Assembly (NCBI GenBank): GCA_046756405.1
Contig: JBHHWH010000004.1
Coordinates: 1-49,425 of the forward strand
Length of the DNA stretch: 49,425 nucleotides
DNA from: Acidimicrobiia bacterium
GTDB lineage: Bacteria > Actinomycetota > Acidimicrobiia > Spongiisociales > ZC4RG35
Direction: 5' to 3'
Shown one piece after another: positions 13,484 through 41,204 of the stretch. Below the pieces are notes generated by a model. It did not search any database. It was given only the letters and a program-made list of their open reading frames with translations, and had not been told where the DNA came from. How positions within the stretch are numbered: position 1 is the stretch's first letter; every line of letters begins with the position of its first letter. The position numbers were made by a program, and so were the translations under genes.

Positions 13484-13774
13484 ATGCGCCAGTATGAAGT
13501 CATGACCATTCACCGGCCCGACCTGGCCGAGGATGACGTCGCCGCTTACGTCTCCCGCATCGAGGAGTACCTCGCCAGCAGTGGGGCCGAAGTGGCGGGT
13601 ACCGATCCATGGGGCAAGCGTCGCTTTGCCTACGAGATCGACCATCTATCCGAGGGCTACTACACCGTGGTCACCTTCAACGGCGGGACGGAGACAGTCG
13701 CCGGGCTCGACCGTATGCTGTCCCTTGCTGACGAGGTGGTACGCCACAAGATCGTCCGGATCGGCGACGACTGA
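13484..13774 (+). CDS. rpsF: 30S ribosomal protein S6
   Basis: MRQYEVMTI, WGKRRFAYEI, EGYY. SD AGGAGG. First gene of rpsF-ssb-rpsR-rplI. Confidence 0.96.
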   Translation: MRQYEVMTIHRPDLAEDDVAAYVSRIEEYLASSGAEVAGTDPWGKRRFAYEIDHLSEGYYTVVTFNGGTETVAGLDRMLSLADEVVRHKIVRIGDD

Positions 13775-13833
13775 CTGGAAACCGTCCCACCGGCAAGGCA
13801 TAGTCGCAGGGGACGGCAATAGAGGAGATCCCA

Positions 13834-14283
13834 ATGTCAAACAACGTCACACTCATCGGAAACCTGGTCGAGGACCCGGAGCTGCGATTCACCCCGTCAG
13901 GGGTGGCCTTGGCCAAGATCCGCCTGGCGGTCAACCGCCGCTGGCGCGGCCAGGACGGCGAGTGGCAAGAAGACACCAGCTTCTTCACTGGAACGGTCTG
14001 GCGTGATCAGGCCGAATACGTCGCCGAGTCCCTTCAGAAGGGCATGCGGGTGATCGTCACCGGTCGCCTCGAGCAGCGGAGCTGGGAGACCGAAGCCGGC
14101 GACAGACGTTCCGTGGTCGAGATCCAGATCGACGAGATCGGACCGTCGTTACGTTGGGCCACGGCCACTGTGACCAAGGCGCAGCGGTCGGGGGGAGATT
14201 GGTCCCAGCAGCGTCCCGCCCAGACACCGACACCGGCCCCGGTGGCCCGGGACGACTACGGCCCCGATGAGGCACCTTTCTAG
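13834..14283 (+). CDS. ssb: Single-stranded DNA-binding protein
   Basis: GNLVEDPELRFTPSG, GRLEQRSW, IGPSLRWA, C-terminal DEAPF. Confidence 0.97.
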   Translation: MSNNVTLIGNLVEDPELRFTPSGVALAKIRLAVNRRWRGQDGEWQEDTSFFTGTVWRDQAEYVAESLQKGMRVIVTGRLEQRSWETEAGDRRSVVEIQIDEIGPSLRWATATVTKAQRSGGDWSQQRPAQTPTPAPVARDDYGPDEAPF

Positions 14284-14295
14284 GAGAAGAGAACC

Positions 14296-14565
14296 ATGCC
14301 GAGGAGAAGCACCAACAACCCCCGGTCGAGGGGCAAGAGACAGGAGTTCCGGCGGGGCAAGCCCAAGCCGTGCTACTTCTGCAAGGAGAACATCGACCAC
14401 GTTGACTGGAAGGACGCCGCCCTGCTCCGCAAGTACATGTCGGATCGGGCCAAGATCCGTAGCCGTAGAGTGAACGGCAACTGCCCTCGACACCAGCGAC
14501 AGGTCGCCCGGGCGATCAAGAATGCCCGAGAGATGGCCCTTCTTCCCTACATAGCCGGACGATGA
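14296..14565 (+). CDS. rpsR: 30S ribosomal protein S18 (Zn-binding C+ form)
   Basis: CYFC...VDWKD...[11 protein letters not shown]...GNCPRHQR...AREMALLPY. Confidence 0.97.
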
Positions 14566-15008
14566 AGCTGATACTCACCTCCGACGTCGAACATCTGGGC
14601 AAGCGGGGCGACCTCGTGGAAGTAGCTGACGGCTACGCCCGCAACTACCTGCTGCCCAAGAAGCACGCCATCAAGGCGACACCGGGTGCCCTGGAGCAGG
14701 CAGAGGCCATCCGGGCGGCCCGAATCGAGGCCGAGCGTCGCGCCAAGGCCGAGGCGGAGAACATCGCCACCCAATTGGTGGGGAGCAGGGTGGTCATTGC
14801 CGCCCACGCCGGCGACGAGGGTCAACTCTACGGCTCGGTAACGGCCGCTGACGTGGTGGAGGGGATCAAGCGGTTCACGGGGATCGAGCTCGACAAGGCT
14901 CACATCCAGATGCAGAAGCCGATCAAGGCCATTGGTCTTCACGAGATCCAGATCAACCTCCACCCGGAAGTCCAGTTCCCGCTGACCCTGGACGTGATTC
15001 CCGCCTGA
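14562..15008 (+). CDS. rplI: 50S ribosomal protein L9
   Basis: [34 protein letters not shown]. Confidence 0.97.
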
Positions 15009-15248: not shown

Positions 15249-16601
15249 ATGACAAGCGTGACAGAACATGCCCCGATGAGGCCCGGTTACCGGACCCCGC
15301 CCCACTCCCGGGAGGCCGAAGAGTCGGTGCTGGGCGCCGTCCTTCTTTCTGAAGACGCCGTCAACGAAGTCATGGACCGGGTTCACCCCGAGGACTTTTA
15401 CGTCCCTGCTCACCAGGCCGTCTTCGAGGCGATGCGAGACCTCTTCGACTCTAACCAGGCCATAGACGCCGTCACCGTCTCCGAGGAGCTGCGTCGGCGC
15501 GGAGAGCTGGAGAAGATCGGTGGTATCCAGTTTCTTACCCGGCTGGTGGACATCGTCCCCTCCACCTCCAACGTCGCCTACTACGCGGGGATCGTCGAGG
15601 AGCATGCCAAACGGCGCGAGCTGATACGGGCCGGGTCGCTGGTGACTGAGGTGGCCTTCGACATGGACGAGGACATAGCCACGGTCATGGACCGTGCCGA
15701 ACAGCAAGTGCTCGGAGTTGCCGAAAAGAGGGCCTCGCAGACGCTTCTCGAAGTGGGACCCATGTTCAGTGACGTACTCGAGCACATCGAATCCATGGAG
15801 CAGCGGGGCTCGGAGATCACAGGCCTCGCCACGGGGTTCGTCGACCTGGACAAAAAACTCGCCGGGCTCCAACCCGCCAACCTGGTGGTCGTCGCCGCTC
15901 GCCCTGCCATGGGTAAGTCCAGCCTCGCCCTCGGGATCGCCATCAACGTGGCCTCCCAGGATGAGCCGGTGGCCGTCTTCTCTCTGGAGATGTCCAAAGA
16001 GGAGTTGGTTCAGCGGATCCTCTCCTCAGTGGGAAAGGTCGACTCGATGAAGCTGCGCTCTGGTCAGCTCGGCCCGCTGTGGAAGCGGGTGGTCGACGCC
16101 GCGGGGCGGATGTACAAGGCGCCTATCTTTATCGACGACTCCCCGGTGGTCACCGTCACCGACATTCGAGCCAAGTGCCGGCGACTCAAGCGGAAGAGGG
16201 GACTGTCCCTGGTGGTCGTGGACTATCTCCAGTTGATGCAGGCTTCCACCCGGGAGAACCGACAGCAGGAGATCTCAGAGATCACCCGGAACCTGAAAAA
16301 CCTGGCCCGCGAGCTCAAAGTTCCGATCATCGCCGTCTCCCAGCTCAACCGTTCCCTGGAGTCCCGGGAGGACAAGCGACCCCGCCTTTCCGACCTGAGG
16401 GAGTCAGGGGCGATCGAACAGGACGCCGACGTAGTCATGTTCATCTACCGCCACGAGTACTACCACCCCGAGGACCCCGACAAGCGGGGGATCGCCGAGG
16501 TGATCGTGGCCAAGCACCGGGCCGGTTCCACCGGTCCGGTGGAGATGACTTTCCCGCCCGAGTTCACTCGCTTCGCCAACCTGGGATGGGACATCGCCTG
16601 A
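15249..16601 (+). CDS. dnaB: Replicative DNA helicase DnaB (no intein)
   Basis: PPHSREAEESVLG, AARPAMGKS, FSLEM, VVDYLQLM, SQLNR, SDLRESGAIEQDAD, AKHR. Start 15249 or 15276. Confidence 0.96.
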   Translation: MTSVTEHAPMRPGYRTPPHSREAEESVLGAVLLSEDAVNEVMDRVHPEDFYVPAHQAVFEAMRDLFDSNQAIDAVTVSEELRRRGELEKIGGIQFLTRLVDIVPSTSNVAYYAGIVEEHAKRRELIRAGSLVTEVAFDMDEDIATVMDRAEQQVLGVAEKRASQTLLEVGPMFSDVLEHIESMEQRGSEITGLATGFVDLDKKLAGLQPANLVVVAARPAMGKSSLALGIAINVASQDEPVAVFSLEMSKEELVQRILSSVGKVDSMKLRSGQLGPLWKRVVDAAGRMYKAPIFIDDSPVVTVTDIRAKCRRLKRKRGLSLVVVDYLQLMQASTRENRQQEISEITRNLKNLARELKVPIIAVSQLNRSLESREDKRPRLSDLRESGAIEQDADVVMFIYRHEYYHPEDPDKRGIAEVIVAKHRAGSTGPVEMTFPPEFTRFANLGWDIA

Positions 16602-33762: not shown

Positions 33763-35061
33763 GTGCCCAGCATCAGATCGACCAGAGTGGTGGTCGAAGG
33801 TGAAGTTCGCCCGGCCACCGTTCGCCACGAGGAGGGGAAGATCGTCGCCGTCGAAGGTGGGACCGCCGACGTCGACTTTGGCGATTTGGTGGTGATGGCG
33901 GGCTTGGTGGACAGTCATGTTCACGTTAACGAGCCGGGCCGCAGCCACTGGGAGGGCTTCGCCACCGCCACCGCTGCCGCGGCCGCCGGAGGGACCACGA
34001 CGGTCGTCGATATGCCCCTGAATTCGATTCCCCCTACCACCTCGGTGTCAGCCTTGGAGGAGAAGCAGAATGCGGCTCGGGACCGGCTCTCTGTGGACGT
34101 GGCGTTCTGGGGTGGGGTTGTAACCGGATCGGAAGGCCAGATCGAGCCGCTGGTCACCGCCGGTGTCTGCGGTTTCAAGGCCTTCATGGCCGACTCCGGC
34201 GTCCCCGAGTTTCCTCCCCTCGACGTCGAGGCCCTGGCCACAGCGATGGCCTCAGTGGCCCGGGCGGACGTACCCCTTCTTGTTCACGCCGAAGACCCCC
34301 AACGCTTGGTTCCTCTCACCGGGGACCCCACTCGATATGTCTCTTACCTGGAGACCAGGCCCGTAGACGCTGAGGTCGAGGCCATAGAAGTCGCCGGCAG
34401 GTTCGCCGGGGAGACCGGAGCCCAGGTGCACATACTCCACATCTCGTCCGGGGAGGGAGCCGGGAGGGTCGCAGGCCATGCGGATCTGAGCGGAGAAACG
34501 TGTCCCCATTACCTCACCTTTGCCGCCGAGGAGATTCCCGACGGTGGAACCCTCTTCAAATGCGCCCCTCCCATCAGGGGGGTTGAACACCGGGAGGCGT
34601 TGTGGGAGGCCCTCGGCTCAAGGGCAGTCGACGTCGTCGTCTCCGACCACTCGCCGGCGCCACCGGAGTTGAAACAGGTGGACTCGGGAGACTTCACCCG
34701 AGCCTGGGGCGGCATCAGCTCCCTACAGCTTCGTCTTCCTGCCATCTGGACGGGAGCCGTGGCTAGAGGCTTCGCAGCGACGGATCTGGCGGAGTGGCTC
34801 TCCGCCGCCCCTGCTCGCCTCGCCGGGGTTGACGACCGTAAGGGATCGATTCGACCGGGAGCCGACGCCGACCTCGTTGTCTGGGATCCCGAGGCGGCAC
34901 TCACCGTCCGAGGTGACGAGCTGTACCACTGTCATCCGTTGACCCCCTATGAGGGGATGACCCTCCGCGGAGAGGTGGTTGCCACGATCCTGGGCGGCGA
35001 GACCGTCTACGACGGCCGCAGGGTTACCCGAGGACGTGGCAGGATGCTGACCAGAAGATGA
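33763..35061 (+). CDS. allB: Allantoinase
   Basis: DSHVHVNEPGR, WEGF, DMPLNSIPPT, VHAE, ETCPHYL, FKCAPPIR, VSDHSP, AWGGISSLQ. Confidence 0.95.
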   Translation: MPSIRSTRVVVEGEVRPATVRHEEGKIVAVEGGTADVDFGDLVVMAGLVDSHVHVNEPGRSHWEGFATATAAAAAGGTTTVVDMPLNSIPPTTSVSALEEKQNAARDRLSVDVAFWGGVVTGSEGQIEPLVTAGVCGFKAFMADSGVPEFPPLDVEALATAMASVARADVPLLVHAEDPQRLVPLTGDPTRYVSYLETRPVDAEVEAIEVAGRFAGETGAQVHILHISSGEGAGRVAGHADLSGETCPHYLTFAAEEIPDGGTLFKCAPPIRGVEHREALWEALGSRAVDVVVSDHSPAPPELKQVDSGDFTRAWGGISSLQLRLPAIWTGAVARGFAATDLAEWLSAAPARLAGVDDRKGSIRPGADADLVVWDPEAALTVRGDELYHCHPLTPYEGMTLRGEVVATILGGETVYDGRRVTRGRGRMLTRR

Positions 35062-36488
35062 TCGACCTGCTCTCCAACGCCGTCGGAGGTCACGTGGTGG
35101 CCTGCAACGACCAGTTCTTCGCTGAGGCGGCCAACTTGCTGAAGGTGTCGGAGCCCGAGTGGAAGGAAGGTGTCTACACCGACCACGGGAAGTGGATGGA
35201 CGGCTGGGAAACCCGCCGTCGACGCGAGCCCGGCCACGACTGGGTGGTCCTTGCCCTCGGGATCCCGGGTCGCGTTCGACGGGTGGTGGTCGACACCTCG
35301 TATTTCACCGGCAACTACCCCGAAGCCTTCTCCCTCGAAGCCTGCGGGGTGGGTTCGGACGAACGTGTCGACTCCGCGGGGTGGGCCGAACTGATTCCGC
35401 GCACCCCGCTTGAGGGAGACGCCGTTGCCACCTTCGATGTCACGGAACCTCACCGGGTAACCCACGTTCGGGTCAACATCTACCCCGACGGAGGAGTGGC
35501 CCGCCTGAGGGTCCACGGCCACCCCCTTCCCAGCATCGGACTGGTCTGTCCGGAGGAGCCCACGGATCTGGCGGGTGCTGCCGTCGGAGGCCAAGCCCTC
35601 GACGCCTCGGACAGCCACTACTCCGACCCTTCGAACCTGCTGCTCCCCACCAAGCCCGCGGGAATGTGGGACGGCTGGGAGACCCGCCGCCGCCGACAGT
35701 CAGGACACGACTGGGCCACCTTCCGCCTTGGCCTCCCCGGCACTGTGGAGCGGCTGGTGGTGGACACCACCCATTTCAAGGGCAACGCTCCAGGATGGGT
35801 CTCGTTCGAGGTCTCAGAGGAGGGGACCGCGTGGGAGACGGTGATCGAGCGGGCACCGGTCCAGCCTGACGCAGTGAACGTCGTTCCTATGGAACCGCCC
35901 GCCCCCGCCGCGTTCGTGAGGCTGAGCCTCCACCCCGACGGCGGCGTGGCTCGCCTGAGGGTGATGGGGCGGCCTGCTGCCCGGGTGGCCGTGACCCGCA
36001 GGCTGGAGTACCTCAACGCCCTCTTCGACCCTGAGGCCCAGCGCTTCTTCAATGCGGTCTGCGCTTCGTCGAGGTGGGTGGAGACGATGGTCTCGGCTCG
36101 TCCCTTCGAGTCTCCGAAGTCGGCGTTCATCAGCGCCGAGGAGGCGTTCGGCCTCCTTGAGCCCGGGGACTGGCTGGAGGCGTTCGCCGGGCATCCCCGG
36201 ATCGGGGAGAGCGGTGACGCGGTGTCAGCACGGGAGCAGGCAGGGACGGCTAGGGCCCCCCGCCGGCTTCTTGAGGAGCTAGCCGCGGTGAACGCCGAGT
36301 ACGAGCGCCGGTTCGGGTTCACCTACATCGTCTACGCCACGGGGAAGACCGCCGAAGAAATGCTGGAGATTGCCCGGGGGAGGCTGAACAACGCCAAGGA
36401 GGAGGAGCTCTCTAATGCCGCCGCTGAGCAGAAGAAGATCACTTGGACGAGACTGCGACGCATGCTTTGTGTCTCGGAGGAACAGTGA
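35058..36488 (+). CDS. alc: Allantoicase fused to a C-terminal OHCU decarboxylase (UraD) domain
   Basis: Two allantoicase repeats (DGWETRRRR x2, PDGGVARLRV x2) continue without a stop into UraD motifs (CASSRW, ARPF, HPRIG, YERRFGFTYIV). Confidence 0.92.
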   Translation: MIDLLSNAVGGHVVACNDQFFAEAANLLKVSEPEWKEGVYTDHGKWMDGWETRRRREPGHDWVVLALGIPGRVRRVVVDTSYFTGNYPEAFSLEACGVGSDERVDSAGWAELIPRTPLEGDAVATFDVTEPHRVTHVRVNIYPDGGVARLRVHGHPLPSIGLVCPEEPTDLAGAAVGGQALDASDSHYSDPSNLLLPTKPAGMWDGWETRRRRQSGHDWATFRLGLPGTVERLVVDTTHFKGNAPGWVSFEVSEEGTAWETVIERAPVQPDAVNVVPMEPPAPAAFVRLSLHPDGGVARLRVMGRPAARVAVTRRLEYLNALFDPEAQRFFNAVCASSRWVETMVSARPFESPKSAFISAEEAFGLLEPGDWLEAFAGHPRIGESGDAVSAREQAGTARAPRRLLEELAAVNAEYERRFGFTYIVYATGKTAEEMLEIARGRLNNAKEEELSNAAAEQKKITWTRLRRMLCVSEEQ

Positions 36489-36799
36489 GCACCCTCAGCA
36501 CCCACGTCCTTGACTCAGCCAGCGGCGAACCGGCCGCAGGACTGCGAGTACACCTGGCCCGTAAGACCTCCGACGGGTGGGAGAGATTGGCCGAAGCCAC
36601 CACCGACGCCGACGGCCGAGCGTCGAATCTGGGTGATCTCGACCCCGGCACCTACCGCCTTGGTTTCGAGACCGGGGAGTACGGCAACGACTTCTACCCC
36701 TTTGTCCATGTCGTGTTTGAGGTGGAAGGGGAACGGTCTCACTACCACATACCCCTTTTGCTGAGTCCCTTCGGTTACACCACCTACCGGGGAAGCTAA
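36485..36799 (+). CDS. uraH: 5-hydroxyisourate hydrolase (transthyretin-like)
   Basis: LSTHVLD, TDADGR, FYP, HYHIPLLLSPFGYTTYRGS. GTGA overlap with alc. Confidence 0.95.
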   Translation: MSTLSTHVLDSASGEPAAGLRVHLARKTSDGWERLAEATTDADGRASNLGDLDPGTYRLGFETGEYGNDFYPFVHVVFEVEGERSHYHIPLLLSPFGYTTYRGS

Positions 36800-36819
36800 A
36801 GCCTCTTCCTCTCCCCGGA

Positions 36820-36872
36820 CCGTTCTGTGAGTGGAATCCGCGGTATGGCCAGTAATTCCCCTCACAGAACGG
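36820..36872. repeat. Palindromic repeat, copy 1 (REP-like)
   Basis: CCGTTCTGTGAGTGGAAT-17 nt-ATTCCCCTCACAGAACGG, 18-bp arms with 1 mismatch. Confidence 0.9.
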
Positions 36873-36903
36873 ATCTGTCACAGGGGTGGGGCATCTTGAG
36901 GGT

Positions 36904-37614
36904 ATGGGGAGAGCCGAAGAAGAGGTGGCGGCGGTCGCCGCCCAGCAGAAGTTCATGGTCAGTCGTGGAGACGTTCTTCGCGCCGGCGGCACCGACAATG
37001 CGATCCGCTGGCGCATCGCAAAGGGCGTGTGGATCCCTGTTCAGGCCGGGGTCTACCAGACGGACCGGCGAGCCCAGGATTGGCGCTCCAAGCTCCTGGC
37101 CGCGGTGCTGGCGGGAGGGGACGGTTCCGTTGTCTCCCATCGAGCCGCTCTGGTGCTGTGGGGGATGGACGGCATCAGTTCGGCCCCAGTGGAGATAACC
37201 GTGCCGTATACCCATGGTCCGATTCCCAGGGGCACAATGGTGCATCGGACGAGGAGGCCGGTTGAGGCTGGGGTCGTCGACGGGATTCCGGTCACCAGCC
37301 CAGAGCGAACCCTGCTCGACTGCGCAGCTCTTCTTCCCCGGCTGGTGGTCATCAAAGCTCTGGAGAGCGCTCTGCGGATGCGCCTGACTTCGGTGGCCAA
37401 CCTCTACGACATGCTGTCCGCCAAAGGTGGTCGGGGGGTGCGAGGAACGAAGAAACTGCGGTCGATCCTCGCCGAGCGGGTGTCGGATACCCCCACCGAC
37501 AGTGGTTCGGAGACGGAGATCCTGTTTCACATGCGCAGAGGGTCCCTTCCCGAGCCCGAACTCCAGCACGAACTGTTCTCACTCGAGGGCGAGAGGATGG
37601 TTCCGGACTTCTAG
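36904..37614 (+). pseudogene. AbiEi-like/DUF559-type protein, C-terminally truncated
   Basis: AAQQxxxVSR...GVY N-terminus, SHRAALVLWG, GIPVTSPERTLLD, DSGSE, LPEPELQ. Stops at VPDF, where the DUF559 nuclease core normally continues. Confidence 0.7.
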
Positions 37615-37618
37615 GCTC

Positions 37619-37667
37619 TTCTGTGAGTGGAATCCGCGGTATAGCCAGCTATTCCCCTCACAGAACG
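37619..37667. repeat. Palindromic repeat, copy 2 (REP-like), direct orientation
   Basis: 46/49 identical to 36823-36871. All three differences are in the loop. Confidence 0.9.
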
Positions 37668-37678
37668 AATAGGGGCCT

Positions 37679-39004
37679 CTAGCCGGACCGCCGCCCTTCC
37701 AAGATGCGGAGGAAAGACCGGGTCCGTAGTTCCTCCACGCTGAGTCCCGTCCGTGTCGTGGCGTCATCTTCGGAGATGGCCCCACAGTTGATCGCCCGGA
37801 GAAAAAAGTTGAGCAGACCCTGACCGGTGGCGGCGTCGTCGAAGACCTCCCCTACCAGGGTGGCCTTGGCCGCCGACGAGACGAAGTTGGCGAGACGCTC
37901 CCCCGCCTGCTCCAGCCCTTCAAGGAAGAAGGCGTAGACGGCGGCGTAACGGGTGGCGAACTGGGCGGGATGCAGGTCCCATCCCTGGTAGTAGGCGTGG
38001 AGGAGGGAGTGTCTTATATGGCTGTAGTGGAGCCGCAGGGCCGCGTGGACCACTTGGCGGTTCTCCTCTACCTGTTCCGCGGTGAGGTCGGCTCCGCGAT
38101 GGGGCGGCACCGGCATCACGTTGGTGGCTCCGTCGGAGATCCATACCCCGGTTCCTGCCAGGCTGACCTGAAGAGTGTGACGGGCGAAGTCGCAGACGGG
38201 GTGGGTCATCGTCTGATAGGCGGCGGTGATGTTCATCGACGCCGTGTAGTCGTAGGTGCCGAAGTGGGCGCCCCTCACCCGCCCTCCACCGGCGTCGACG
38301 AACTTACGCACCCCCACCAGACCGTCCCGGTCGATGACTGACTGAGGGGTCTCCACCATCAGCTCCAGGGGAATCGGGCCGAGGTCGAGGCGCTCTTCCA
38401 GCGCGGCGAGAGCTTCGGCCATGACCGCGACCTGGTCGACATGCTGGATCTTGGGCAGGGTCACACAGAACCCTTCCGGCGGTACCCCGCCCTCTTCGAC
38501 TACTGCGGTCACAAAAAGGTCGAGGGTCCTTAGAGCGCGCCGGTGCAGCTCTCCGGAGAGGGGCTTGATACGGATCCCGACGAAGGGCGGCAGGGTCCCT
38601 TCGGACATCCCTCTAATCATCTCGGTGGCGGTGCGCCTGGCGTCGGCGTCCTCTTCATCGTCGGGACGGTGCCCATACCCGTCCTCGAAGTCGATGCGAA
38701 AGTCCTCAACTGCCTGGCGTCGCAGCTTCTCTGCCACCCGCGGGTGGACCTGTTTCGCTAGTTCGATGTCCATCCCCAGGATCTCGACGAGACGGTCGGG
38801 ATTCGGGATCCACCGCTCCATGAATTCGGCGGCCAATTGTCCGAGGCGAGGGGCGGTACTGGCGGTGAACAGGTGGGCACCCCCGTAGACGGTGTGGACG
38901 GGTTGGCGTTCCGGCCCCTCCCCGGGAAAGTCGGCGGCTATCCGGCCGGCCACACTCCCGAGACGGTCAGTCCAGCGGGCCAGGTCTTCGTTGCGCAGAG
39001 TCAT
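37679..39004 (-). CDS. HpcH/HpaI aldolase-citrate lyase fold protein (DUF6986-like)
   Basis: RQPVHTVYGGAHLF, EDFRIDFEDGYG, TLPKI, ELMVET, HFGTYDYTA, SDGATN, QGWDLHPAQ, DDAATGQ. Confidence 0.8.
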   Translation of the reverse strand: MTLRNEDLARWTDRLGSVAGRIAADFPGEGPERQPVHTVYGGAHLFTASTAPRLGQLAAEFMERWIPNPDRLVEILGMDIELAKQVHPRVAEKLRRQAVEDFRIDFEDGYGHRPDDEEDADARRTATEMIRGMSEGTLPPFVGIRIKPLSGELHRRALRTLDLFVTAVVEEGGVPPEGFCVTLPKIQHVDQVAVMAEALAALEERLDLGPIPLELMVETPQSVIDRDGLVGVRKFVDAGGGRVRGAHFGTYDYTASMNITAAYQTMTHPVCDFARHTLQVSLAGTGVWISDGATNVMPVPPHRGADLTAEQVEENRQVVHAALRLHYSHIRHSLLHAYYQGWDLHPAQFATRYAAVYAFFLEGLEQAGERLANFVSSAAKATLVGEVFDDAATGQGLLNFFLRAINCGAISEDDATTRTGLSVEELRTRSFLRILEGRRSG

Positions 39005-39040
39005 GGGCCCGACTCTATGACCCTCGTAAGGTTGACGCCC

Positions 39041-40399
39041 ATGGGAACGCTTCTGGTCCGGGATGCGGAGGTCCTGGTGACCATGGACGGATCTGAGACC
39101 CGAGGGGGCGGCCTGTTCGTACGGGACGGCTTCATCGAAGCTGTGGGGCCCTCCCATGCCCTTCCTCAGACCGCGGACGAGGTAGTGGACCTAACCGGAC
39201 ATGTGGTGCTTCCTGGTCTGATCAATACCCACCACCATCTCTACCAGACCCTAACCCGGGCCGTCCCCGGCGCCCAGGACGTGGGTCTGTTCGACTGGCT
39301 GCGCACCCTCTATCCGATCTGGGCCCGGATGACCCCCGAACACGTAAGGGTGGGCACGACCCTCGGGCTCGTGGAGCTGGCCTTGAGCGGGGCTACCACC
39401 GTCTTCGACCACCACTACCTGTGGCCGAACGGCTCCCGTATCGATGACCAGTTCGAAGCAGCCGACGCGATCAACATCCGCTTCACCGCCTCGCGAGGAT
39501 CGATGAGCCTGGGAGAGTCGAAGGGGGGTCTTCCCCCCGACTCGGTCGTCGAAGACGAGGCGTCGATCCTCCAAGCCTGCACCGAAGCGATAGATGCCTT
39601 TCACGATCCGTCCCAGGGGTCGAGGCGTCAGGTGGTGGTAGCTCCATGCTCGCCCTTCTCGGTCACCGAGGACCTGATGCGGGAGTCGGCGGCGTTGGCC
39701 CGGGACAAGGGAGTTCGCCTTCATACCCACCTCGCCGAGACGGCGGACGAAGAGGAGTTCTGCCTGGAACACTATGGGAGACGGCCGGTGGCGCACATGG
39801 AAGCGGTGAGCTGGGTGGGTGAGGACGTCTGGTACGCCCACGCCGTCCACGTATCTCCACCCGAGGTGGAACTGCTGGCCGCTACCGCGACCGGTGTCGC
39901 CCACTGCCCCACCTCCAACATGAGGTTGGCCTCTGGGCTGGCCCCCGTTCTCAAATACCTGGCTGCTGGGGTTCCGGTGGGGCTCGGAGTCGATGGCTCG
40001 GCGTCGAACGATTCCTCCCAGATGTTGGCGGAAGTCCGCCAGGCCCTTCTCCTCAACCGGCTCGCCGTCTCCCCCGGGCTTGGTGAGGGCACACGGATGA
40101 GCGTCCGCCAGGCCCTGGAGCTGGCGACGGTGGGAGGGGCCCGCCTTCTCGGGCGTTCCGACCTCGGGACTCTGGCACCGGGTAAGGCAGCCGACTTCAT
40201 CGCCGTCGATCTGGAGCGCGTGGAATACGCCGGAGCGGGACACGACCCGGTAGCGGCGGTGGTCCTGTGCGCTCCGGTGCGCGTCGATCACTCCTGGGTA
40301 GGAGGCAGGCCCCTGGTGGCTGACGGTCGAGTGGCCGGCGTCGACGAGGGCCCCCTGATCGAAGCGGCCAACCGCCTCGCTGCCGACCTGATGGGCTAG
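39041..40399 (+). CDS. 8-oxoguanine deaminase (AtzB-like amidohydrolase)
   Basis: NTHHHLYQTLTRA, SRGSMS...GGLPPD, APCSPFSVT, HTHLAET, HCPTSNMRLASG, GVDGSASND. Confidence 0.88.
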   Translation: MGTLLVRDAEVLVTMDGSETRGGGLFVRDGFIEAVGPSHALPQTADEVVDLTGHVVLPGLINTHHHLYQTLTRAVPGAQDVGLFDWLRTLYPIWARMTPEHVRVGTTLGLVELALSGATTVFDHHYLWPNGSRIDDQFEAADAINIRFTASRGSMSLGESKGGLPPDSVVEDEASILQACTEAIDAFHDPSQGSRRQVVVAPCSPFSVTEDLMRESAALARDKGVRLHTHLAETADEEEFCLEHYGRRPVAHMEAVSWVGEDVWYAHAVHVSPPEVELLAATATGVAHCPTSNMRLASGLAPVLKYLAAGVPVGLGVDGSASNDSSQMLAEVRQALLLNRLAVSPGLGEGTRMSVRQALELATVGGARLLGRSDLGTLAPGKAADFIAVDLERVEYAGAGHDPVAAVVLCAPVRVDHSWVGGRPLVADGRVAGVDEGPLIEAANRLAADLMG

Positions 40400-40409
40400 C
40401 TTGCCGCCG

Positions 40410-41204
40410 ATGGAAGTCCACCACGCCACGACGCTGGACCAGGCGCTGGCTGCCATGGCTCAGGGAGCGATGCCCCTCGCCGGAGGAACGGATCTGATGG
40501 TGGAGGTCAACTTCGGCCACGCCCGCCCCGACTACGTGGTAGCCCTCCGTCGCATCGAGGAGCTGAAGGAGTGGGAAGAAAACAGGATCGGCGCCGGCGT
40601 CAGCTGGAGACGCCTTGAGCAGGGCGCCCCCACCGCTCTTGCTCAGGCCGCCCGGACTGTGGGCTCTCCCCAGATCCGCAACGCTGGAACCATCGGAGGG
40701 AACCTGGGGACCGCCAGTCCTGCCGGGGACGGTCACCCTTTCCTCGCCGCGGTGGACGCCGAGATCGAACTCACCTCTACGCGGGGCCGGAGACGGGTTC
40801 TGTGGTCGGAGTTCTTCGTTGGGGTGAAACGGACCTGCCGGAACCACGACGAGCTGATAACCGCCGTCTACCTTCCCCAACAGCTTCCAGAACGTCAGGC
40901 CTTCGCCAAGGTGGGGATGCGGTCCGCCATGGTGATAGCGACGGTGTGTTGTGTGGTCACCCGCGACGAGACCGGTCGGACCACCGTGGCACTGGGTTCG
41001 GTGGCACCCACTCCGATGCGGGCTTACCGGGCGGAGGCGATGATATCTGCCGAGCCGACTCCTTCCGCTGCGGCTCTGGATGAGTTCCAGCGGCTGGTGG
41101 CCGAGGAAGTACAACCCATCACCGACCATCGCGCTTCCGCCGAGTACAGGAGACACGCCGCCGGGGTGGTGGCTCGGCGACTGCTGGAGAGGTGCCTGCG
41201 ATGA
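40410..41204 (+). CDS. Xanthine dehydrogenase FAD-binding subunit (PucC-like)
   Basis: LAGGTDL, VGSPQIRNAGTIGGNL, ASPAGD, PITDHRASAEYRR. Confidence 0.9.
   Translation: MEVHHATTLDQALAAMAQGAMPLAGGTDLMVEVNFGHARPDYVVALRRIEELKEWEENRIGAGVSWRRLEQGAPTALAQAARTVGSPQIRNAGTIGGNLGTASPAGDGHPFLAAVDAEIELTSTRGRRRVLWSEFFVGVKRTCRNHDELITAVYLPQQLPERQAFAKVGMRSAMVIATVCCVVTRDETGRTTVALGSVAPTPMRAYRAEAMISAEPTPSAAALDEFQRLVAEEVQPITDHRASAEYRRHAAGVVARRLLERCLR

Follow-up and report, generated by a model that had tools for sequence, protein, structure and literature searches.

What kind of unit is formed by a single gene enclosed between two nearly identical palindromes, and what do the palindromes have to do with the protein? 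The question is raised by a 49,425-nt stretch of DNA from an Acidimicrobiia bacterium (contig JBHHWH010000004.1 of assembly GCA_046756405.1; hereafter the window), in which a gene for an AbiEi-type DNA-binding protein lies between two hairpin-forming repeats, at a site between uraH and a gene of the DUF6986 family. The window is contig C4 of a 2.55-Mb assembly of 195 contigs (98% complete), designated G000. The initial annotation regarded the hairpin-gene-hairpin unit as a selfish element analogous to the repetitive extragenic palindromic (REP) sequences and their REP-associated tyrosine transposases (RAYTs). REP-like palindromes are among the commonest repeats of bacterial genomes, and RAYT transposases are, to our knowledge, their sole recognized protein partner.

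Instead of an active mobile element, the window unit represents a decayed member of a widespread, apparently undescribed partnership. Judging from the sequence comparisons described below, we consider it probable that a palindrome, a gene for an AbiEi-type winged helix-turn-helix (wHTH) and C-terminal domain (CTD) joined to a Vsr/DUF559-type nuclease, and a second copy of the same palindrome make up a three-part module, which is conserved in Actinomycetota and resembles the REP/RAYT partnership. The palindromes would then represent genome-wide, REP-like and mostly gene-3'-proximal families, with one cognate family for each paralogous gene.

The palindromes of the window

Comparison of the hairpins at 36823-36871 and 37619-37667 bore out the 46 identities in 49 positions reported at first. 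All three differences (36847, 36853 and 36854) are located inside the 17-nt loop, and a T/C mismatch at arm position 10 is common to both copies. The direct repeat reaches 52 nt at 92% identity. The arms of the left hairpin (36820-36837 and 36855-36872) are 18 nt long, those of the right hairpin 15 nt, and hairpins of this type, referred to as family B, carry the invariant base motif TTCTGTG...CACAGAA. Folded as single-stranded DNA, the window hairpins gave −12.9 to −19.5 kcal/mol (z −4.5 to −8.2), and 0 of 200 shuffled sequences were as good. The window hairpins are not due to chance, and only four copies exist in the genome at 83% identity or more: the two in the window, one between convergent genes on contig C32 and one after a gene on contig C21. 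The 49-mer is thus found beyond the window pair. A more distant relative of family B was detected at C1:65746.

Neither hairpin is followed by a T-run, and the terminator scan called neither of them, its one site being unrelated. A search of Rfam with positions 35500-39000 at E≤10 gave only chance-level matches (the best being mir-3524, E 1.8, its 19 bits falling short of the gathering score of 99), and a consensus scan found 0 sigma-70-like promoter sites.

Matching palindromes at homologous loci

Homologues of the protein were detected at E≤1e-20 in 55 of the 121 genomes of the bacterial family, and a class-wide profile search at E≤1e-30 found them in 118 of 251 genomes, up to 9 per genome. 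A search for related loci seeded with a single orthologue yielded just two, which were near-identical. For the loci of these genes, hairpins were scored as matching when both had a stem of at least 10 bp with at most one mismatch and a loop of 3-30 nt, were located no farther than 180 nt upstream of the start or 150 nt downstream of the stop, and shared a 10-mer. The two sides matched at 18 of the 27 assessable loci within the family and at 4 of the 17 from other families; among additional paralogues the figure was 5 of 20, and among loci from named records 1 of 7. Altogether, 28 of 71 homologous loci were flanked in this way; among unrelated gene proxies of G000 the number was 2 of 1347. The 28 represent a lower bound, hairpins with two mismatches being seen by eye at L056, L065, L099, L113, L120 and L122. 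Loci at contig ends (L057 and L064), L125 and the repeats L069-L081 and L119 (=L091) were left out of the count. The unpublished genomes G048 and G127 are included in the gene and hairpin counts and G317 (L092) in the flanking counts; no conclusion hangs on them alone.

The upstream hairpin is located about 14-60 nt ahead of the start in most loci, and the downstream hairpin 1-4 nt past the stop in the orthologues. The stem sequences are wholly different between bacterial families, while the two sides of one gene agree. Among cultured strains, Pseudonocardia parietis DSM 45256 has matching palindromes at both sides of its gene, and Gordonia terrae B62 has one downstream. Paralogue-specific hairpin types were found within single genomes, two each in G132 and G085, four in G293 and three or more in G214. 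For one of the G214 types, the arm sequence was hit 41 times on the forward and 39 times on the reverse strand of the 4.1-Mb genome, and two such hairpins flank the corresponding gene. An exact-pattern search with the G293 hairpin type, which was too strict, found only the source copy.

In G009 (G009:C1:1900-4540; L020 and L032), the homologue is one gene away from the DUF6986 gene, and the intervening 548-aa open reading frame (ORF) is also bracketed, three hairpins of the same type being located one in each of three intergenic gaps.

Cognate hairpin families within one genome

Besides family B, two larger families were identified in G000. A 45-nt TCTGTG...CACAGA span of the window hairpin is common to family A, with stems starting TTCTGTGCGG, for which nhmmer detected 30 loci (at least 30 copies), some as tandem doublets about 62 nt apart and some at contig ends. 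Family C (GCGTGTGCAGGAG.GCCGCC...) has about 10 copies. All three families consist of short, extragenic, imperfect palindromes in multiple copies, as REP sequences do. The reliable copies were mostly located within about 25 nt of a gene 3' end, in a rough catalogue with false positives: the loose regular expression used for G000 also hit inside ORFs, and 2 of 7 B-type hits that were read (C81 and C44) were spurious.

G000 has three other paralogues, on contigs C27, C16 and C10, each of about 300 aa with a DUF559 domain and sharing 32-44% identity with the window protein. For the intact gene on C27 (minus strand, 13716-14618), copies of family A were located 44 nt past the stop and 27 nt before the start, with more nearby. 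The intact gene on C16 (minus strand, 15374-16297) is accompanied by family C copies at both sides. Thus, three of the four paralogues are bracketed, each by its own hairpin type. Two of the four family B copies lie at the window gene, and 2 of about 10 family C copies at the C16 gene.

As the control, 1351 gene proxies of G000 (ORFs of at least 200 aa with third-position G+C content, GC3, of at least 0.72) were examined in the same way. An upstream hairpin was present at 126, a downstream hairpin at 135 and both at 13, but the two sides matched in only four cases: the window gene, the C16 gene, a Mem_trans transporter gene and an SBP_bac_5 gene. The C27 gene was missed in this control, the start of its ORF proxy being too far upstream.

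The tandem doublets of family A are located at C2:12202-12306, C78:3505-3609, C28:17865-17969, C89:8772-8877 and C27:14651-14755. Their spacer of about 17 nt repeatedly contains TTATCCACA or a close variant, which we take to be the DnaA-box consensus; the exact 9-mer occurs only 13 times in the genome when both strands are counted. These doublets were considered as an empty form of the gene module, but the spacer is unlike the gene junctions and the idea was rejected.

A motif resembling TATAG, CATAG or CTAGAG recurs at the loop centre of hairpin types with differing stems in many genomes (36843-36850 and 37639-37646 in the window; also L040, L060, L062, L066 and L127). Such a motif points to a further conserved contact in addition to that at the stem base.

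Co-occurrence and covariation

The pattern TTCTGTG-N25-45-CACAGAA was found in 55 of the 121 family genomes, with 1-59 hairpins per genome, while the reversed control gave 0-2. Three or more such hairpins were present in 33 of the 55 gene-bearing genomes and in 7 of the 66 others (odds ratio 12.6, a descriptive value uncorrected for kinship). For the test of covariation, 19 distinct flanking hairpins were picked by the TTCTGTG pattern, a choice that in itself makes the outer 7 bp invariant. Covariation was seen in eight inner and two outer stem pairs, with 61 two-sided changes against 27.5 in shuffled sets, none of 500 of which reached 61; slid controls were far lower. The Y1_Tnp domain (PF01797) of RAYT and IS200 transposases gave 0 matches in G000 and was present in 1 of the 121 family genomes, which is without such hairpins.

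The cognate relation between the hairpins and the protein family, as first proposed, is upheld indirectly by the flanking on both sides, the paralogue-specific types, the co-occurrence, and the lack of a RAYT or an adjacent AbiEii.

The protein and the decay of the window copy

The window protein matched the AbiEi profile of PADLOC at E 4.3e-25, and its orthologue in G065, to which it is 65% identical, at E 7.5e-29. In Pfam, AbiEi_4 was matched at E 1.3e-4, under the cut-off, and NCBIfam has no family for either protein. The protein family had been described in the initial annotation as an AbiEi-type wHTH usually followed by DUF559. This is correct for the N-terminal part and for full-length homologues, but the window protein itself gave no hit to DUF559 or MTES_1575 and is without the nuclease core.

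In an alignment with 29 homologues of the same bacterial family, the window protein stays in register to '...GERMVPDF' and then ends, while the orthologues run 65 residues further through 'YWPDR.KAVEVDG.DAH...RRFLAF', the Vsr/DUF559/MTES_1575 nuclease core. Its end aligns with F236, ahead of K243, E246, D248 and H253. The nuclease domain has thus been lost from the window copy. The orthologue DNA has GGACTTCTA where PDFY is encoded and GGCCTTCTA where the frame closes with LAF-stop, and a 195-nt deletion between these near-repeats would yield the 'CCGGACTTCTAG' of the window, with the hairpin 4 nt on. Without the nuclease core, the window copy cannot cleave and at most still binds DNA. The truncated ORF nevertheless stays open for 236 codons.

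Among 27 full-length homologues (alignment A1), MTES_1575 was detected in 27, DUF559 in 26 and AbiEi_4 in 11. The nuclease domain occupies residues 233-300, approximately, and the putative catalytic residues D235, K243, E246, D248 and H253 are, with others, invariant in 27/27. An AlphaFold2 model of the G065 orthologue had a mean pLDDT (predicted local distance difference test) of 90.8. With Foldseek, the first 200 or so residues of this model matched AbiEi of Streptococcus agalactiae (6y8q, E 1.5e-5) and Rv2827c (1zel), and the last 100 or so matched the catalytic domain of I-Bth0305I (3r3p, probability 1.0, E 0.017), Vsr (1cw0 and 1vsr) and NGO0050 (3hrl). A homodimer prediction of the full-length protein scored below a control and carries no weight in either direction. 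No transposase domain was found in the window protein or in the full-length homologues.

Close homologues carry the public labels 'DUF559 domain-containing protein', 'very-short-patch-repair endonuclease' and 'type IV toxin-antitoxin system AbiEi family antitoxin domain-containing protein'. Further decayed copies are present at G044:C1:1656849-1657733 (an internal TAG), G070:C18:52349-53035 (L062; about 70 N-terminal residues gone) and G119:C1:17225-17581 (a 120-aa C-terminal fragment). Many close homologues (P0011, P0014, P0018, P0022 and others) are known only from contigs of about 1.0-1.4 kb, or about the size of the gene, which is what breakage of assemblies at the flanking repeats would produce.

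Descent and rearrangement of the locus

Full-length orthologues in G065, G129, G054, G132, G070 and G105 are located at the corresponding site, between the end of uraH or the uricase gene and the end of the DUF6986 gene. The proteins that share this site, together with two of unknown site, form one clade (support 100/99). In the DUF6986 tree, which includes the unpublished genomes G027 and G038, all genomes with the gene belong to a single clade, of which G024 and G017 are also members. In these two, just 17-22 nt separate the flanking genes and both gene and hairpin are lacking, which implies at least one loss or more than one gain within the clade. With G012 included, the comparison of this interval in relatives, suggested at the outset, yielded three empty sites, with the flanking genes 9-22 nt apart. 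The window gene is an old, vertically inherited resident of the site between uraH/uricase and DUF6986. Site groups match protein clades generally, and the gene is single-copy per type in each genome, as RAYT genes are.

Inversions of the gene were found in two lineages. In G105 the gene copy is inverted relative to its neighbours; an independent insertion was rejected, the protein belonging to the same clade. In genus g11 the orientation of the gene between its palindromes differs, G010, G080 and G112 having one and G059 and G098 the other, and movement between two sites was rejected in favour of one site with an inverted gene.

In contrast to the gene, the hairpins are what moves or turns over. 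In the congeners G065 and G129, the proteins of which are 93% identical, the hairpin upstream of the gene is present in G065 and cleanly absent in G129. One solo hairpin is common to both at an orthologous site, and another, located between a pair of convergent genes common to the two genomes, is present in G129 but missing from G065; no duplication was visible. No target-site duplication was thus detected at the single filled/empty hairpin site inspected; neither a known transposase nor near-identical copies, as expected of an insertion sequence, were found.

Population data were available from three hydrothermal-vent metagenome DNA runs of one study (X1-X3) that hold the locus. An allele without the gene, joining 36816 to 37619, was represented by record 9 of X2 (10,102 nt, depth 12.1) and a shorter record 20 of X3 (depth 7.4). 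The junction consists of seven letters, a variant of the six window letters there; one hairpin is left, and the 796-nt repeat unit (hairpin plus gene) is missing. In X1, the gene is found on record 6 (850 nt, depth 12.6), its flanks having depths of 23-25, and a variant contig of 72 nt was recovered at depth 9.65. As no 31-mer is common to the two window hairpins, an artefact of repeat collapse is unlikely. Given the synteny elsewhere, a deletion between direct repeats is a more economical account of this allele than an insertion.

Feature map and neighbouring genes

The features of the locus are collected in Table 1. The ORF listed for the window gene extends over 36886-37614, but the conserved start is ATG 36904 (MGRAEEE...), which places the palindrome 31 nt ahead of the start. 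TGTCA-like motifs occur at the position of the leader motif in many homologous loci, as judged by eye in upstream sequences.

Table 1. Features of the hairpin-flanked gene and its surroundings in the window
Feature	Position	Strand	Basis and remarks
5-Hydroxyisourate (HIU) hydrolase gene (uraH)	36443..36799	+	Pfam Transthyretin/HIUase, E 2.5e-34; stop 20 nt 5' of left hairpin
Left (gene-upstream) hairpin, REP-like family B	36820..36872	+	18-nt arms, one mismatch, 17-nt loop
Segment absent from second population allele	36817..37618	.	Metagenome contigs joining 36816 to 37619
Leader motif TCTGTCAC	36877..36884	+	5 nt past left hairpin; found by eye
Decayed AbiEi-type wHTH + C-terminal-domain gene	36904..37614	+	236 aa plus stop
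Putative deletion junction ...CCGGACTTC TAG GCTC	37603..37618	+	DNA of L038, L039 and window compared side by side
Right (gene-downstream) hairpin, family B	37619..37667	+	4 nt past gene stop; 11 nt before stop of convergent DUF6986 gene
DUF6986 / HpcH-HpaI aldolase-like gene	37679..39157	-	Pfam DUF6986, E 3.8e-173; convergent with decayed gene

The hairpins bracket exactly one ORF and the neighbours are purine-catabolism genes, in agreement with the initial annotation. From 33763 to 41156, the neighbours include genes for an amidohydrolase, an allantoicase fused to 2-oxo-4-hydroxy-4-carboxy-5-ureidoimidazoline (OHCU) decarboxylase, HIU hydrolase and the minus-strand DUF6986/HpcH-like protein, and two more ORFs without Pfam hit. 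Integrase, transposase and AbiEii genes were confirmed to be missing from this interval; AbiEii (PF08843) has only two matches in G000, on the other contigs C115 and C112.

Most relatives, including the unpublished G027 and G038, have a urate oxidase gene (about 272 aa) between uraH and DUF6986. None is located there in G000, and tblastn with the sequence of a relative found no uricase across the 98%-complete assembly, while HIU hydrolase, OHCU decarboxylase and allantoicase are kept. The fusion at 35058-36488 is one 476-aa ORF of two allantoicase repeats and an OHCU decarboxylase domain, combining two steps of urate breakdown.

Discussion

The module shares several properties with REP/RAYT systems and with REP doublets forming hairpins (REPINs). 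Its palindromes are short, imperfect and extragenic, with few to dozens of copies, a conserved base motif and covarying stems. The gene is single-copy, vertically inherited and bracketed by its own repeat type, with several such pairs per genome, and repeat numbers vary widely between relatives. RAYT systems have these same properties of REP structure, pairing and copy number. In contrast, the bracketed protein is an AbiEi-type DNA binder with a Vsr/DUF559 nuclease and not an HUH/Y1 transposase, the two window copies that flank the gene form a direct repeat, and the base motif is not GTAG but TTCTGTG in this bacterial family and other motifs in others. Covalent strand transfer, as proposed for RAYTs, is also beyond a hydrolytic nuclease.

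Homology to AbiEi (6y8q) and to Rv2827c of Mycobacterium tuberculosis (1zel) extends over approximately the N-terminal 180-200 residues, including both wHTH and CTD. AbiEi binds and represses its own promoter at a palindrome with 11-bp arms separated by N27 and extendable to 23-bp arms (PMC3985639). This long palindrome just upstream of the AbiEi gene is of a size like that of the hairpins described here. The window gene differs from AbiE in that no AbiEii (DUF1814) nucleotidyltransferase gene is adjacent, that a nuclease is fused C-terminally in the homologues, and that the palindrome is repeated past the gene and across the genome. With the Vsr/DUF559/MTES_1575 nucleases such as I-Bth0305I and NGO0050, the full-length homologues share the fold and the invariant acidic and histidine residues, while the window copy has lost the domain. 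Features of Vsr-type and homing nucleases such as a T/G-mismatch context, a cytosine methyltransferase partner or an intron setting were not encountered here. We know of no description of Vsr/DUF559 nucleases that includes a fusion to AbiEi or flanking palindromes.

Two rearrangements known from other systems may be compared. DUF559-annotated genes were enriched 14.3-fold among predicted targets of programmed inversion, as listed in a table of that study (Nucleic Acids Res 2023, PMC9881135). The gene described here is likewise inverted between palindromes in two lineages; these inversions are, however, fixed differences between species, known from genome comparison. The gene-less allele resembles a deletion of the solo long terminal repeat (solo-LTR) type, exactly one hairpin being kept, although the repeats here are only 49 nt long and palindromic.

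Based on these likenesses, we infer that the AbiEi-type module binds its cognate palindrome of about 47-50 bp, by analogy with AbiEi on the 49-bp palindrome of inverted repeats IR1-IR2 in its own promoter, and that the upstream copy may serve autoregulation. With less confidence, the nuclease domain is proposed to nick or cut the palindromes. Such nicking could drive their turnover by gain, loss, and inversion or deletion between two copies, and the whole would represent a REP/RAYT-like partnership in which a hydrolytic nuclease takes the place of the HUH transposase. That family B has so few members would agree with its decay once the nuclease was lost, in this single case.

Several observations weigh against this interpretation. 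No hairpin was detected on either side at 3 of the 27 loci within the family, at 6 of the 17 from other families, at 3 of the 20 additional paralogues and at 1 of the 7 loci from named records, and the C10 paralogue of G000 has only a terminator-like hairpin. The unrelated Mem_trans and SBP_bac_5 genes are each bracketed by family A hairpins. Co-phylogeny of protein and hairpin is not strict, the window stems having GAGTGG and those of the closest orthologues GTCGG. Seven genomes have three or more hairpins without a gene at E≤1e-20, although three of them (G061, G088 and G114) have a homologue by profile search, and the relatedness of the genomes makes the counts overstate independence. The solo-hairpin allele comes from contigs of one study only. 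Finally, a hydrolytic nuclease of the PD-(D/E)xK type alone cannot rejoin DNA, which leaves the copying of hairpins to new sites unexplained.

Of the alternatives, the one that survives best is a pure regulator: an AbiEi-like autorepressor with the upstream palindrome as operator and the downstream one as terminator, the dispersed copies forming a regulon, decoys or mRNA-stabilising elements, and the nuclease having an unrelated or lost role. The like-sized palindrome bound by AbiEi in its own promoter (PMC3985639), the location of the upstream hairpin in most loci and the still open truncated ORF would all agree with it. It remains unlikely, as the putative catalytic residues are invariant in all 27 homologues, the same palindrome is also located past the stop codon, and the dispersed copies lie mostly at gene 3' ends and not at promoters, as far as the rough catalogue goes. 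Gain and loss of hairpins between congeners, and deletions and inversions bounded by hairpins, are likewise not accounted for by regulation.

A passive association, in which ordinary REP-like repeats are spread by another enzyme or by replication slippage and a flanking pair is kept alike by gene conversion, is given little credence. It draws on the two unrelated bracketed genes (C21:15271-16176 for Mem_trans and C1:62248-63984 for SBP_bac_5), with several hairpins within a few kb on C1 and C21, on the similarly REP-rich neighbourhood on C27, and on the hairpins in some genomes without a detected gene. It does not account for paralogue-specific hairpin types within each of five genomes, for the share of family B and family C copies found exactly at their own genes, for the bracketing of 3 of 4 G000 paralogues against 2 of 1347 other proxies, or for an architecture kept across families with unrelated stems.

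The selfish element of the initial annotation, for which the protein would serve as transposase, acting on the hairpin ends, and the interval of uraH and the aldolase-like gene as insertion site, fares no better and is highly doubtful. Near-identical direct repeats do bound exactly one gene, the interval is empty in G024, G017 and G012, and a population allele lacks the gene. Against this, the orthologues of six genomes occupy the same site and form one clade, the gene-bearing genomes all belong to one DUF6986 clade, and each type has one copy per genome, within-genome paralogues being only 27-45% identical. Moreover, the apparent second site in g11 is the same site with the gene inverted, the window copy is without a nuclease core, and the one filled/empty hairpin site shows no target-site duplication. 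The claim of insertion at this site is not supported. Three observations had been named in advance as telling against the reading of the initial annotation: a gene syntenically fixed in relatives is largely what was found, while the 49-mer is not confined to the window and flanking palindromes are present at homologues elsewhere.

Least credible of all is a homing-type element, in which a Vsr-like nuclease cuts hairpin-bearing or hairpin-less alleles and repair copies the gene into the break: the likeness to the homing endonuclease I-Bth0305I (3r3p, E 0.017) and the presence of gene-plus and gene-minus alleles in one population would suit it, but the gene is outside any intron or intein, both flanks are complete hairpins and not half-sites, the doublet spacers are unlike gene junctions, and the nuclease-less window copy persists, at roughly half of the flanking depth in X1.

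The module of palindrome, AbiEi-type nuclease gene and palindrome thus remains the preferred interpretation. No published link of this protein family to flanking or dispersed palindromes was found in full-text searches, with subscription journals and supplements outside their scope. More tentatively, and at somewhat less than even chance in our judgement, the AbiEi-wHTH/Vsr proteins may represent a second, HUH-independent class of repeat-associated proteins across Actinomycetota, including cultured Pseudonocardia, in which nicking keeps paralogue-specific palindromes circulating and loss of the nuclease is followed by repeat decay. This class would operate in a lineage from which RAYT is nearly missing. 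If so, a function would be assigned to a very common actinobacterial protein that now stands under varied database labels, and the origin of actinobacterial intergenic palindromes would be explained. The several pairs within one genome would offer natural orthogonal protein/palindrome pairs for testing how repeats are kept, spread and lost, and these genes should not be taken for orphan antitoxins.

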